From Escherichia coli (GTDB lineage: Bacteria > Pseudomonadota > Gammaproteobacteria > Enterobacterales > Enterobacteriaceae), in NCBI RefSeq assembly GCF_051903065.1, contig NZ_CP178438.1: DNA of 64,000 nucleotides; one strand, written 5' to 3'. The translations under genes were made by a program, and so were the position numbers. Under the pieces are notes generated by a model. It was not told the DNA's origin and ran no database searches. It saw nothing but the letters and a program-made list of their open reading frames with translations. Position 1 is the stretch's first letter, and the number at the start of each line of letters is the position of its first letter. Positions 33,276-42,662 of this stretch are shown piece by piece.

Positions 33276-33290
33276 GGTAATGACTCCAAC

Positions 33291-33794
33291 TTATTGATAG
33301 TGTTTTATGTTCAGATAATGCCCGATGACTTTGTCATGCAGCTCCACCGATTTTGAGAACGACAGCGACTTCCGTCCCAGCCGTGCCAGGTGCTGCCTCA
33401 GATTCAGGTTATGCCGCTCAATTCGCTGCGTATATCGCTTGCTGATTACGTGCAGCTTTCCCTTCAGGCGGGATTCATACAGCGGCCAGCCATCCGTCAT
33501 CCATATCACCACGTCAAAGGGTGACAGCAGGCTCATAAGACGCCCCAGCGTCGCCATAGTGCGTTCACCGAATACGTGCGCAACAACCGTCTTCCGGAGC
33601 CTGTCATACGCGTAAAACAGCCAGCGCTGGCGCGATTTAGCCCCGACATAGCCCCACTGTTCGTCCATTTCCGCGCAGACGATGACGTCACTGCCCGGCT
33701 GTATGCGCGAGGTTACCGACTGCGGCCTGAGTTTTTTAAGTGACGTAAAATCGTGTTGAGGCCAACGCCCATAATGCGGGCTGTTGCCCGGCAT
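33291..33794 (-). CDS. insB: IS1 InsB frame (transposase made as InsAB' by -1 frameshift)
   Basis: insB ORF overlapping the insA 3' end. Confidence 0.9.
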
Positions 33795-33988
33795 CCAACG
33801 CCATTCATGGCCATATCAATGATTTTCTGGTGCGTACCGGGTTGAGAAGCGGTGTAAGTGAACTGCAGTTGCCATGTTTTACGGCAGTGAGAGCAGAGAT
33901 AGCGCTGATGTCCGGCGGTGCTTTTGCCGTTACGCACCACCCCGTCAGTAGCTGAACAGGAGGGACAGCTGATAGAAACAGAAGCCAC
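33713..33988 (-). CDS. insA: IS1 InsA (91 aa)
   Basis: [43 protein letters not shown]… Zn-finger. Confidence 0.95.
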
Positions 33989-34043
33989 TGGAGCACCTCA
34001 AAAACACCATCATACACTAAATCAGTAAGTTGGCAGCATCACC

Positions 34044-34051
34044 CTGCAAAT
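34044..34051. repeat. right copy of the 8-bp IS1 target-site duplication (ctgcaaat)
   Basis: See left copy. Confidence 0.8.
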
Positions 34052-34072
34052 CATCCGTAGAGAGGGAAATGG

Positions 34073-34822
34073 TTAAATGTCAACGACGTGAACGGTGAGT
34101 TTACTGTGCTCAAGATGCATCAGATCGCTGGCGCGTATTTTCGAATCGGTAATCACGCGATTGAATCGCTCAACGGGACCGATGGAGTATGAATGTACAG
34201 CACCAAATTTCGAGCTGTCAGTCAGGACTATCGCTTCGCACTCTTTTTCCAGCACGGCATTCACCACATCGGTACGCATCATATCGCGACCGGTGAATCC
34301 AGTTTCAGGTTGCCAGCCATCAATACCAATAAATGCTTTGCTGAAATGTACCTGTTGGATGCACTGGCGTGTCAACGGGCCAACCATACTTTCGCTTTTT
34401 TTCTGGTACACGCCACCGAGCAAAATAACTTCACAAGGCGCGTCTTTCAGCAAATGCGCGATGTAGCTGCTGACCGTGATGATAGTGACATTTTTCTTCT
34501 GCTCCCCCAGAGTCCGGGCGAGCAGGGCATTGCTGCTGCCATTTTCGATAAAGATGGTTTCGCCCGGTTGAACCAGTGACGCGGCAAACTCGGCGAGTTC
34601 ACGCTTCAGCGTATAGTTGCTCATCATACGGGTTTCGACGTCATCACTATCAAGCGAAACTGCAAAGCCATGTGCACGGCGGAGGTAACTCAGTTTTTCG
34701 AGGGTGTTGAGATCCTGGCGAATGGTAACTTCAGAAACTCCAGTGGCTTTTGCCAGATCGGTTACGCTAACCTGACCCTGGTCAATGACCATCTGTAGAA
34801 TAGTTTGTTGTCGGGAATTCAT
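34073..34822 (-). CDS. yciT: DeoR-family transcriptional regulator YciT (249 aa)
   Basis: N-terminal HTH, DeoR C-terminal sensor domain. Confidence 0.9.
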
Positions 34823-34911
34823 CGCTGTAATTCTTATAACGTTATAATACTAAATAAAAAAATACTGACGCGCCGGGCATCCTCAAATAGGAAAACCTGA
34901 AGGCACGATTG

Positions 34912-35085
34912 TTAAATCTCCCAAGGTGCCTTCGGGATGTCTGGCGTAGATTCAGCAACCTGGCGCAAGAGTTCTGCTTTAAGTATCTCGAGATTATGGA
35001 TCGCAGAGTGGTAATCGCCTGCCACAAGGATATCTAACACAATATCAATACGTTCGGCAACGCGCTGGGCATCAAATTCAGACAT
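34912..35085 (-). CDS. yciZ: small protein YciZ (57 aa)
   Basis: [20 protein letters not shown]…. Confidence 0.8.
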
Positions 35086-39387: not shown

Positions 39388-39454
39388 AATTGTCTATTTT
39401 GGTGGCCATTAGAGCGGCTGACAGTTTTACGCGAATCTGTCTGACGCGGCAAGG

Positions 39455-40582
39455 TTAATATGTCTCACCCAACGCGATTTTTAAGCGATTTATCCAGCCA
39501 CACAGCCCGCTCCATACCAGCAGATTAATAATCTGCGTTGATGATTTTTCGTGTTCGAGTAAAGGGCTGAACTGGGCGGCGCTAAAGCGATCGGGTGCTC
39601 GGGTCAGCCATTGTATCGCCTGAACGGTAGCGCGCTCAACAGAATGACGGTCAGCCCATTGGTTAATTTCATTTTCGCCCTTGCGCAGAAGGGTGCTGAT
39701 TTTTTTATATTCATTTGATGAATCCATACAGGTGGCAAAACAAGCAGGACTGCCATTTATACGCGCGCATAACAACGCCGCAAGCTGATTATCCGGCTGT
39801 GTATTGACCCGTGTGCTGTTTAACAACTTTTCGAGAAGGGAAAGTGAAATAGGGTGGAGAGAGAGTATTTCGGCCAGTTGGCAAAGTTCTGCAGTTGAAC
39901 TTTTTGTGTGCTCTTCAGGTAGTTTTTCCACCTCATAGCTGCTTCGCCAGCGTAATGATTCATCAGCAAACAGTGACGCGTCGGCGTAGTTTTGTATCTC
40001 CAGCCCGGGTAACCAGCGTACCGGATGCCCGAGATAAGCCTGAAATGTCGCAATTGTCCGCGCCTGAAAGCCAATAAAACCAATGATTTGGTTAATGATC
40101 ACACAGTCCCAGGCAGTAAGACCGACGTCATTCAGATGCTGGCGCGATCGGTTGTCGATAATAGAAGGCGAGCTAGCCAGTTGGCGGGCATATTGCGTGA
40201 TTTGTGCCAACCGATGATTACTTTCCCTGGTGGAATCAGGCCCGGGGAGCGGCGTAAGTCGCGCCGAATAGTAGTTACATAACCGCTGGACGCCGCAAAC
40301 CTGAGCAACCGTCAGGGCCGTCGACAAGCGTTCATAAGCGGTGAAGGTCTGTGAACGGGTCACGGTAAGCTGGTCAGGGAACAAATCCACTGCAAGAACA
40401 CGCGCAGGGTCCAGCCATGAAAGGAAGGGGGCCAGCGTTTCTTTTTCAAGGATCACGTCGAGTAGAAAGGGATCGCTGACCTTTGCGGCTTCCGGGACCA
40501 GAGGCAGAACGTCATACTCCGTAGTACTGGATTGCGTTTCATGATACCAGTGGCTTTTGCCGGTGATGTGGCGTTGTTCCAT
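39455..40582 (-). CDS. yciW: CMD-domain protein YciW (375 aa)
   Basis: Start at [14 protein letters not shown]; ORF track 39455..40660 has an upstream extension. Confidence 0.8.
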
Positions 40583-40725
40583 GGGCGCTCCTTGGTCGTA
40601 AAGGAAATCGTTATCCTGACGCAAGGCGGGAAGGGGAGAAAGACGGATCGGCGATAACAAATATCAGAAAGGTATAACAGAGATAACGGGCGGCACAACG
40701 CCGCCCATCTTTACCAACAGAACGA

Positions 40726-41514
40726 TTATTTCAGTTCGAGTTCGTTCATTGCAGCAATGCTGAAACCGCCGTCAACGTGGACCACTTCACCGGAGATACC
40801 GGCAGAGAGATCGGAGCACAGGAATGCCGCAGAGTTACCCACATCTTCAATAGTAACGGTACGGCGAATCGGGGTAACGGCTTCGCAATGAGCCAGCATT
40901 TTGCGGAAGTCTTTGATGCCGGAGGCCGCCAGAGTACGGATCGGACCAGCAGAGATGGCGTTAACACGCACACCTTCCGGACCCATCGCGTTCGCCATAT
41001 AGCGCACGTTCGCTTCCAGAGACGCTTTTGCCAGACCCATAACGTTGTAGTTCGGGATAGCGCGCTCAGCGCCAAGGTAGGAAAGGGTCAGCAGGGCAGA
41101 ACCCGGATTCAGCATGGAGCGGCAAGCTTTTGCCATTGCAACGAAGCTGTAGGAGCTGATGTCGTGAGCAATTTTGAAGCCTTCACGGGTAACGGCGTTA
41201 ACATAGTCACCATCCAGCTGATCGCCAGGTGCAAAACCAATAGAGTGTACGAAACCGTCAAATTTCGGCCAAACTTTCCCCAGTTCAGCGAACATGGTGT
41301 CGATGCTGGCATCTTCGGCAACATCGCACTGCAGAACGATGTCAGAACCCAATTGAGCGGCAAATTCTTCTACGCGGCCTTTCAGTTTGTCGTTCTGGTA
41401 GGTGAATGCCAGTTCAGCTCCTTCGCGGTGCATCGCCTGAGCGATACCGTAGGCGATGGACAGTTTGCTGGCAACACCGGTTACCAGAATGCGCTTACCG
41501 GAAAGAAAACCCAT
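40726..41514 (-). CDS. fabI: enoyl-ACP reductase (NADH) FabI (262 aa)
   Basis: [40 protein letters not shown]…. Confidence 0.97.
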
Positions 41515-41949
41515 AGCTTTAATCCTTATTGTTGATGCTTGTTTGCCTGAAAATCAGGCGATTCGTCGTTTTAGTAAACAGTACGAACAGATAAACGGTT
41601 ATTATAATCAACCTGGCTGTGGGTGGCTATAGTTGCGCTTTCTGTACCGGAGAGAAGCTGCGGTACAGAGCATTTTGCGTTATCTACTCTTGACGCCTGC
41701 AAGGGGTAGGTTGGGGAAATATCTTATAGAATCTGACTATGAAACTATTCGTATTAGCTCCGATAAGTTTGATGATGAAAACAGAACTGGCGACAACAAG
41801 TAGCTGCCTTTCTGATGAATTTACCCCAACTTAATATTGTCAACTATCTTCACAGAATCTCCACAATCTCTTCATTATCAGAATATGCACCATGGGTGAT
41901 GCTGCCAACTTACTGATTTAGTGTATGATGGTGTTTTTGAGGTGCTCCA

Positions 41950-42225
41950 GTGGCTTCTGTTTCTATCAGCTGTCCCTCCTGTTCAGCTACTGACGGGGTG
42001 GTGCGTAACGGCAAAAGCACCGCCGGACATCAGCGCTATCTCTGCTCTCACTGCCGTAAAACATGGCAACTGCAGTTCACTTACACCGCTTCTCAACCCG
42101 GTACGCACCAGAAAATCATTGATATGGCCATGAATGGCGTTGGATGCCGGGCAACAGCCCGCATTATGGGCGTTGGCCTCAACACGATTTTACGTCACTT
42201 AAAAAACTCAGGCCGCAGTCGGTAA
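41950..42225 (+). CDS. insA: IS1 InsA (91 aa)
   Basis: Identical protein to the copy 1 InsA. Confidence 0.95.
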
Positions 42226-42647
42226 CCTCGCGCATACAGCCGGGCAGTGACGTCATCGTCTGCGCGGAAATGGACGAACAGTGGGGCTATGTCGGGGCTA
42301 AATCGCGCCAGCGCTGGCTGTTTTACGCGTATGACAGGCTCCGGAAGACGGTTGTTGCGCACGTATTCGGTGAACGCACTATGGCGACGCTGGGGCGTCT
42401 TATGAGCCTGCTGTCACCCTTTGACGTGGTGATATGGATGACGGATGGCTGGCCGCTGTATGAATCCCGCCTGAAGGGAAAGCTGCACGTAATCAGCAAG
42501 CGATATACGCAGCGAATTGAGCGGCATAACCTGAATCTGAGGCAGCACCTGGCACGGCTGGGACGGAAGTCGCTGTCGTTCTCAAAATCGGTGGAGCTGC
42601 ATGACAAAGTCATCGGGCATTATCTGAACATAAAACACTATCAATAA
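42144..42647 (+). CDS. insB: IS1 InsB frame
   Basis: Identical to the copy 1 InsB. Confidence 0.9.
42199..42207 (+). other. IS1 programmed -1 ribosomal frameshift motif (TTAAAAAAC)
   Basis: A6C slippery run in the insA/insB overlap. Confidence 0.85.
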
Positions 42648-42662
42648 GTTGGAGTCATTACC

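Follow-up and report, generated by a model that had tools for sequence, protein, structure and literature searches.

Results

The IS1 pair and the genes around it

In a window of 64,000 nucleotides of Escherichia coli DNA, the whole stretch analysed here, two 768-nt copies of IS1 were confirmed to lie in opposite orientation around fabI. The features of the region, by position in the window, are the following.

32811-33029, minus strand: osmB, left outside neighbour of copy 1, start codon 246 bp from IS1 (open reading frame list and sister RefSeq annotation)
33268-33275, no strand: left target duplication of copy 1, CTGCAAAT, 8 bp, read directly
33276-34043, minus strand: IS1 copy 1, 768 nt, IRR on the outer (left) side and IRL on the inner side, both insA and insB read from the minus strand
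34044-34051, no strand: right target duplication of copy 1, CTGCAAAT, 8 bp
34073-34822, minus strand: yciT, DeoR-type regulator, stop codon 29 bp from copy 1 (open reading frame list and sister annotation)
34912-35085, minus strand: yciZ (sister-genome annotation mapped onto the window)
35123-35251, plus strand: ymiD, small protein gene (sister-genome annotation mapped onto the window)
35233-37218, minus strand: pdeR, c-di-GMP phosphodiesterase (open reading frame list and sister annotation)
37453-39387, minus strand: rnb, RNase II (open reading frame list and sister annotation)
39455-40582, minus strand: yciW (open reading frame list and sister annotation)
40726-41514, minus strand: fabI, essential enoyl-ACP reductase, start codon 380 bp from copy 2 (open reading frame list and sister annotation)
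41664-41894, no strand: retained left edge of the eef island, 231 bp of the spacer between fabI and eefR, ending 96 bp short of the eefR start
41895-42662, plus strand: IS1 copy 2, 768 nt, IRL on the inner (left) side and IRR on the outer side, placed precisely where 2,688 bp have been deleted
42663-45014, plus strand: eefB remnant, RND permease without its first 252 codons, called a pseudogene by PGAP
45018-46391, plus strand: eefC, outer-membrane factor, intact
46400-47563, plus strand: eefD, Bcr/CflA-type MFS transporter, intact

A repeat finder returned one inverted pair in the whole 64-kb window, with arms at 33275-34044 and 41894-42663 that are 770 nt long, 100% complementary and separated by 7,849 nt. 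The arms exceed the elements by one base per side, which is a chance match; the elements proper, at 33276-34043 (minus) and 41895-42662 (plus), are exact reverse complements of 768 nt each, so the identity and inverted orientation claimed in the first-pass annotation were borne out on alignment. A chance origin is impossible for a perfect repeat of 768 nt. The bracketed segment of 7.85 kb carries yciT-yciZ-ymiD-pdeR-rnb-yciW-fabI in the K-12 order, which agrees with the gene list given earlier except for the addition of ymiD, and an Rfam scan of 33276-42662 returned no RNA family.

Both copies belong to the IS1 family, isoform IS1A, by their length and ends, by their reading frames and domains, and by target duplication. 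Each has the terminal inverted repeats IRL and IRR (ends GGTGATGCTGCCAACTTACTGAT... and GGTAATGACTCCAACTTATTGAT...), an intact insA of 91 aa with the Pfam domains Zn_ribbon_InsA and HTH_Tnp_IS1 (PF03811, PF12759), and an insB frame with DDE_Tnp_IS1 (PF03400). The A6C -1 frameshift site TTAAAAAAC, at IS position 305 in both copies, joins the insA and insB frames, which is the architecture described for IS1 (PMC12428005), and each copy is identical at 767 of 768 positions to the annotated IS1A of K-12 MG1655. In public sister assemblies one or both IS1 copies have a 1-nt deletion in a C run and are annotated as 'frameshifted', so that activity and identity of the copies may vary between isolates, or homopolymer errors may be present in these assemblies.

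Simple insertion of copy 1 between osmB and yciT

As an empty-site reference we used ECNB21-M121 (L004), a near-identical relative that is free of both IS1 copies here. Window positions 30808-33275 correspond to L004 1-2468, positions 34044-41894 to L004 2461-10312 in the same orientation, and positions 42663-59500 to L004 13001-29838. At copy 1 the two window flanks overlap in the relative by 8 bp (L004 2461-2468), where CTGCAAAT is present once; this copy entered the osmB-yciT spacer by simple insertion, duplicating 8 bp of target. Among IS1 target duplications 9 bp is commoner than 8 bp; the first-pass annotation had rightly reported a duplication at this copy, and its length is here corrected to 8 bp. 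It was also right in limiting the duplication to copy 1, since no such repeat flanks copy 2. A search of the literature for the positions of the osmB promoter or RcsB box returned nothing usable.

Copy 2 marks a deletion in eefRABCD

At copy 2, window position 41894 corresponds to L004 10312 and position 42663 to L004 13001, with IS1 between them and 2,688 bp of the relative's sequence missing. The flanks of copy 2 are unrelated (TGCACCATG versus AAAAGCCAG), and it has no target duplication because the 2,688 bp adjoining it have been deleted. The missing duplication had previously been read as the mark of a separate event, which stands, and the adjoining deletion had been overlooked. With the insertion sequence exactly at the junction, collinear flanks and no duplication, copy 2 is a case of IS-associated deletion; where a target duplication is lacking, the usual explanation is an adjacent deletion or inter-IS recombination (PMC11708052).

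The lost DNA comprises eefR, eefA and the first 252 codons (756 nt, the 5' quarter) of eefB, a stretch that encodes in L004 a TetR/AcrR regulator, an RND adaptor and the 5' end of an RND permease. The eefRABCD operon, which has been placed at fabI-sapF and reported to be highly conserved in E. coli (PMC12817139), is complete in L004 between fabI and sapF (TetR regulator, adaptor, RND permease, outer-membrane factor and MFS pump). Only eefB', eefC and eefD are kept in the window, and the loss of eefR, eefA and the 5' part of eefB inactivates the EefABC pump. Alignments to K-12 and to L004 place the end of K-12 homology at 41663. To the right of copy 2, K-12 has ycjD, whereas the window has the 5'-truncated RND permease of an operon that K-12 lacks, so that the earlier statement that gene order matches K-12 holds inside the segment but fails immediately to the right of copy 2, at the truncated eefB.

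The arrangement is recent and rare

Two shared SNPs separate the window lineage from ECNB21-M121 over ~28.7 kb of flanking and interior DNA. The fabI-IS1-eefB' junction was found in 2 of 5,426 complete genomes, both of them Ecuadorian faecal isolates that also have copy 1. The deleted stretch is intact in 2,039 of the ~2,043 eef-positive genomes, and an IS1-associated eef knockout occurs in 2 of the ~2,043 that are complete and eef-positive. 23CRST027 has ~37 IS1-matching places and ECNB21-M121 ~28, where the median is near 10; unrelated strains, too, have IS1 in the spacers that are occupied here. We found no published literature on strains 23CRST027 and 23CRST031.

Intermediates were searched for with the real junctions and a synthetic 'eefB 5' end + IS1' junction as queries. 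The single full-length match to the synthetic junction, in AVS0968, proved to be two separate pieces joined and not a real junction.

Discussion

Origin of the two copies

We consider, with a probability of about 0.9, that the locus results from two independent and recent IS1 events, one of them with an IS1-associated deletion, in an IS1-rich commensal E. coli lineage. An active IS1A-type element would have transposed twice, independently and recently: once as a plain insertion into the osmB-yciT spacer, making the 8-bp duplication, and once landing in the fabI-eefR/eefB region, where an IS1-promoted adjacent deletion by intramolecular replicative transposition would then, as the most likely path, have removed the 2,688 bp. 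That the two elements came by different events, as the first-pass annotation had proposed, agrees with the private duplication at copy 1 and the deletion junction at copy 2. The deletion itself is read directly from the alignment; its mechanism and the order of events we infer, because no intermediate, with IS1 at either deletion endpoint, its own duplication and eef intact, occurs among the 5,426 complete E. coli genomes. All the mechanisms invoked are already known, and the locus shows ordinary insertion-sequence wear with no new element.

The deletion at copy 2 could also have arisen by homologous recombination between two direct IS1 copies, both flanked by target duplications of their own, that lay upstream of eefR and within eefB, respectively; such an exchange would leave one hybrid IS1 with unmatched flanks. 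This route gives the end product that is seen (one IS1, no duplication and a clean collinear deletion), deletions of this kind are frequent in E. coli (PMC5009759, PMC11708052), and the lineage has many IS1 copies in a region that has been struck repeatedly. It requires, however, two insertions within 2.7 kb plus a recombination, against two steps for an adjacent deletion, and neither single insertion was found in the 5,426 complete genomes. The two paths are indistinguishable from their product, and we regard recombination as possible, if on the unlikely side.

Copy 2 might instead derive from copy 1 in a 'duplicative inversion', a single intramolecular replicative transposition, with the segment afterwards turned back through the IS1 pair. 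IS1 transposes mainly by a replicative route (PMC12428005), and its intramolecular form does produce two inverted copies around a segment, but this origin predicts either an inverted interior or, after re-inversion, a normal duplication at copy 2, and neither is observed. It also leaves the 2,688-bp loss unaccounted for and takes more steps than two ordinary insertions. We dropped this very unlikely sequence of events as needlessly complex, the duplication that it predicts at copy 2 being absent.

Inversion of the bracketed segment

Homologous recombination is known to invert DNA between identical IS copies in opposite orientation (PMC5009759), a point already raised for this pair, and inversions between such copies have been described in evolving E. 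coli (Raeside et al. 2014, PMC4173774; Lee et al. 2016, PMC5009759). Judging from its geometry, inversion of the 7.85-kb segment by homologous recombination is possible: the pair would be a passive substrate with no function of its own, and RecA-dependent recombination could flip the 7.85 kb at low frequency. Such a flip would probably be neutral, because no gene would be separated from its own flank. In the window, as in the two public sister genomes, the interior is still in its ancestral orientation; a fixed inversion, already denied in the first-pass annotation, is excluded by these two assemblies and by collinearity, in the same orientation, with ECNB21-M121 and K-12.

It could further be supposed that the pair acts as a functional invertible switch under selection, whose flip alters expression of osmB, fabI or the eefC/eefD remnant. 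The geometry alone, together with the general ability of identical inverted repeats to recombine (PMC5009759), would speak for it. Against it, the segment and the DNA next to it contain no gene for a site-specific recombinase, the three available sequences share one orientation, the arrangement is limited to one very recent clone, and the interior genes keep their flanks, including the 380 bp upstream of fabI, of which the proximal 148 bp alone are shared with K-12. Set beside fim- or hin-type switches, the locus has no dedicated recombinase, its repeats are whole IS1 copies and not short specific repeats, and the window and both sister assemblies, being all ancestral, do not present both orientations. 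We hold a switch to be extremely unlikely.

The pair as a composite transposon

With both IS1A copies intact and an IRR at each outer end, the 9.4-kb unit could move. If it were a nascent composite transposon before its first move, wild-type fabI, the triclosan target, could reach a plasmid together with rnb and pdeR; that it is one, or that the segment flips at a measurable frequency in the population, seems to us very doubtful.

A stronger version, in which the 9.4-kb IS1-[yciT...fabI]-IS1 is a composite transposon of the Tn1681 type that has moved or is moving as a unit with fabI, the gene of the triclosan target, is scarcely credible. The copies are identical, inverted and intact, with IRR outermost, and IS1-bounded examples exist: Tn9 is an IS1-bounded composite transposon with direct arms, and Tn1681 has inverted arms. 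The outer flanks, however, are ACTGCAAAT and AAAAGCCAG and do not form a duplication, copy 1 has a private duplication, and collinearity with the IS-free relative and with K-12 extends over the interior and both outside flanks, so the segment is native where it stands and was not brought in as a unit. A search for the interior in 72,556 plasmid records returned chromosome-like records and Klebsiella homologues, with no IS1-bracketed interior among them. The former were chromosomes under a wrong label or large records resembling chromosomes, and the latter are ~82% identical; the one match that was opened, p1_115011, is prophage-plus-chromosome DNA with IS26 and not IS1. The IS1-bracketed unit was seen at a single chromosomal site, in 2 genomes. 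We therefore rejected movement as a unit, there being no duplication around the unit, a native interior and no plasmid copy; of the resemblance proposed in the first-pass annotation, the geometry of two insertion sequences bracketing a segment is what survives.

An assembly artefact, with a misplaced IS1 or a collapsed repeat giving a false deletion, is hardly to be entertained: IS copies are a classic source of misassembly and the sister assemblies do have homopolymer indels, but the window and two complete genomes, each assembled separately, agree to the base on both junctions, and apart from this the flanks follow those of an independent relative in order and are nearly identical to them.

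Significance and comparison with known systems

The locus shows cleanly how accessory genes are eroded in an IS1-rich E. coli clone, and has little significance beyond bookkeeping. An operon reported to be highly conserved where present, eefRABCD, is knocked out, in parallel with IS-mediated decay in Shigella dysenteriae. Annotators should treat the sequence to the right of copy 2 as a pseudogene of eefB and a deletion scar specific to the lineage, and not as a locus resembling K-12. As a potential substrate for inversion, the inverted pair is invisible to short reads, which matters only when the structures of close isolates are compared.

The elements resemble IS1A of E. coli K-12 in their 768 nt, terminal inverted repeats, insA, insB and the A6C programmed -1 frameshift site, and differ from it in their genomic sites and at position 444 (T>G), where codon 65 of the InsB frame is Arg here and Ser in IS1A. 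Like Tn9 and Tn1681, the locus has two full IS1 copies flanking a segment; unlike them, it lacks a duplication bordering the unit and has no second site, and its interior is native chromosome in place. It shares with the inversions of Raeside et al. and Lee et al. the substrate of identical inverted IS copies, whereas no inversion has occurred or been fixed in the window. Copy 2 is like the IS-associated deletions of the Lenski long-term and mutation-accumulation lines in having a single IS at the junction, no duplication and collinear flanks, although the 14 documented cases in PMC11708052 were IS150 and not IS1. A parallel to the eef lesion itself is the operon of Shigella dysenteriae (PMC12817139), in which an insertion sequence likewise replaces the 5' genes (eefR and most of eefA) at the fabI-sapF site; the endpoints there are different, whereas here, in an E. 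coli host, all of eefA and 756 nt of eefB are gone.

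An inverted pair of identical IS1 copies around fabI

The sole long repeat reported by the repeat finder within the 64-kb window is an inverted pair whose arms (33275-34044 and 41894-42663; 770 nt, 100% complementary, 7,849 nt apart) correspond to two IS1 elements of 768 nt each when the ends are read directly, the one additional matching base per arm side being a coincidence. Aligned with the same locus in the close relative ECNB21-M121 (L004), which carries no IS there and gives the empty sites, the window is laid out as follows.

Layout of the locus in the window, with the matching positions of L004
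30808-33275: left flank, with osmB left of copy 1 (L004 1-2468)
33276-34043 (-): IS1, copy 1
34044-41894: interior, with yciT, yciZ, ymiD, pdeR, rnb, yciW and fabI, all (-) except ymiD, in K-12 order (L004 2461-10312, same orientation)
41895-42662 (+): IS1, copy 2
42663-59500: right flank, with, in order, an RND permease gene entered midway, an outer-membrane factor gene, an MFS transporter gene and sapF (L004 13001-29838)

The first-pass annotation described the copies as identical and inverted, and sequence comparison bears this out, the two being exact reverse complements over 768 nt. Both have the same IS1 terminal repeats, an InsA of 91 aa (Pfam Zn_ribbon_InsA and HTH_Tnp_IS1), an InsB frame with Pfam DDE_Tnp_IS1 and the frameshift site TTAAAAAAC, a layout that agrees with published IS1 architecture (PMC12428005), and the pair is real, far beyond chance. 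The element is IS1A, with a single difference from the annotated IS1A of MG1655 (position 444, T>G); codon 65 of the InsB frame is Arg in the window and Ser in MG1655. A C-run (CCCC) lies at 33543 within copy 1, with an equivalent run in copy 2. One C of this run is absent from copy 1 in 23CRST027 and from both copies in 23CRST031, two public sister genomes, so that PGAP labels those copies 'frameshifted' pseudogenes; the loss may be a homopolymer sequencing error or a real inactivation.

All six genes previously placed in the segment (fabI, rnb, pdeR, yciW, yciZ and yciT) are present, ymiD being additional. The K-12 gene order claimed for the region holds inside the segment and fails at its right boundary, since homology with K-12 ends in the alignment at 41663, 148 bp upstream of fabI, and the fabI-sapF interval of K-12 contains ycjD alone, where the window has an RND permease remnant. 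The Rfam scan matched no family within 33276-42662; elsewhere in the window it matched a tryptophan operon leader (12662-12755, -) and the sRNA STnc180 (25202-25404, +).

Copy 2 lies at a deletion in the eef operon

At copy 1, the flank and interior blocks overlap by 8 bp (L004 2461-2468, CTGCAAAT). This overlap is the target duplication left by a simple insertion; its site lies 22-29 bp beyond the stop codon of yciT and 239-246 bp upstream of osmB. About 26 bp from copy 1, on the osmB side, lies a motif (33234-33249, -; CTAAGATGATTCCTGG) that we take to resemble the RcsB-box consensus, and by its position the osmB control region may have been spared. Exactly at the copy 2 site, L004 10313-13000 (2,688 bp) is absent from the window, and the flanks of copy 2, …TGCACCATG and AAAAGCCAG…, are unrelated to each other and are the two edges of this deletion. 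The earlier proposals that only copy 1 has a target duplication and that the two elements arrived by different events both agree with these alignments.

L004 shows what was lost: genes for a TetR/AcrR regulator and an RND periplasmic adaptor, and 756 nt (252 codons) from the start of the RND permease gene, whose remnant in the window is 100% identical to the IS-free locus of ECNB21-M121. With its five genes between fabI and sapF, the cluster is the efflux operon eefRABCD. A recent study describes this operon from E. coli phylogroups B2, D, E, F and G, reports high conservation in the genomes that have it, and gives ycjD as its replacement in phylogroups A, B1 and C (PMC12817139). Judged from sequence, the window carries a knockout, ΔeefR-eefA-eefB', with eefC and eefD intact, and a rare one, since among the 2,043 of 5,426 complete genomes with the downstream part of the operon, 2,039 keep the deleted stretch (at least 80% covered). 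In copy 2, insB ends with TAA at 42645-42647, in frame with what is left of eefB from 42663, five codons further on, and no insB-eefB' fusion protein is expected barring stop-codon readthrough; eefC and eefD could be reached by transcription running out of copy 2. On the other side, fabI keeps 380 bp upstream, of which K-12 shares just the proximal 148 bp, so the retained DNA very probably includes its promoter.

The window lineage and ECNB21-M121 are separated by just two SNPs over about 28.7 kb, making both IS1 events very recent. In the collection of 5,426 complete genomes, the fabI-IS1-eefB' junction occurs in just two, 23CRST027 and 23CRST031, both isolated from human faeces in Santo Domingo, Ecuador, and no other genome of the collection has copy 1 at the exact window site; four small differences in 42 kb place the window and 23CRST027 in the same clone. 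Compared with both sisters and ECNB21-M121, the window alone has three differences: a missing G at 41544, 30 nt before fabI begins, a synonymous change at 37075 (pdeR codon 48) and an A/G difference at 58657.

The locus is a recurrent IS target

The clone is IS1-rich: 23CRST027 has about 37 places that match IS1 and ECNB21-M121 has 28, where the median for a genome is about 10-11. In unrelated strains, too, IS1 has repeatedly hit the spacers of copies 1 and 2 (A+T about 61-63%, versus 49% for the locus). Independent insertions with 8-9-bp duplications lie in the osmB-yciT spacer, at positions other than that of copy 1, in strain 300709 (L005 2118-2885; 9-bp duplication GAGAAGGGA) and the M45 group (L007 2007-2774; 9-bp duplication CGCTGATAA), and between yciZ and ymiD in strain 503829 (L006 3183-3950). 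Upstream of fabI, AVS0968 (NZ_CP124392.1; L003 12382-13149) has a divergent variant of IS1 with 93.4% identity to the window copy, without target duplication and in place of 927 bp (L004 10098-11024) holding the eefR repressor gene only, with eefABCD intact. The locus has thus undergone a second, independent IS1-associated deletion in this strain, and the loss of eefR might de-repress the pump. A further IS hit on the operon is found in IAI39 (NC_011750.1; L009 6983-10466), where an IS629 split by a group II intron (ltrA) lies between eefA and eefB.

Origin of the arrangement

Read from the alignments, the locus has received two separate IS1 insertions and a deletion abutting copy 2, and has kept its ancestral interior orientation; for the deletion we infer the route. 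Copy 2 would have inserted at one endpoint and then promoted an adjacent deletion via intramolecular replicative transposition, a reading to which we give a probability of roughly 0.55-0.6. Adjacent deletion is the classical account of an IS without duplication (PMC11708052), and IS1 movement is mainly replicative (PMC12428005). Recombination between two direct IS1 copies would yield the identical end product, and we regard it as the less likely second candidate. The 5,426 complete genomes yielded no intermediate for either route.

The resemblance to a composite transposon noted earlier stands for the geometry and goes no further: no duplication encloses the 9.4-kb unit (segment plus both IS1), copy 1 has a private one, and the DNA inside the unit and on either side of it is native and in its original place. 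Among 72,556 plasmid records, 12 matched the interior and none had an IS1-bracketed copy, the matches being mislabelled or chromosome-like E. coli records and Klebsiella and Salmonella homologues. A 27.8-kb circular 'plasmid' record of K. pneumoniae, p1_115011 (CP089956.1; L008), carries at 4996-14254 a piece of chromosome, rnb-yciW-fabI...sapF-sapD-sapC, linked with genes of a lambdoid prophage (integrase, bet/gam, Q, holin) and with IS26, and looks like an aberrantly excised prophage with an extra fabI copy; two more small Klebsiella records are similar.

As a pair, the inverted copies have no function. The segment would be inverted if copies 1 and 2 recombined in a RecA-dependent manner, and such an inversion should be near neutral, since each interior gene retains its own flanks. 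The interior orientation is common to the window, both sister assemblies, the IS-free relative and K-12, and, as first proposed, no inversion is fixed in the window, nor is one in the sisters; inversions of this kind are invisible to short reads (PMC5009759). That the segment flips measurably, or is a nascent fabI-carrying composite transposon, we consider highly improbable.

The arrangement, though real, is ordinary: the events are standard and already known IS biology, and two public RefSeq genomes already contain the arrangement in annotated form. The sole new point is that the missing duplication of copy 2 marks a 2.7-kb IS1-associated deletion, which would inactivate eefRABCD in this clone; its closest precedent is the IS that stands in place of eefR and most of eefA in Shigella dysenteriae (PMC12817139).
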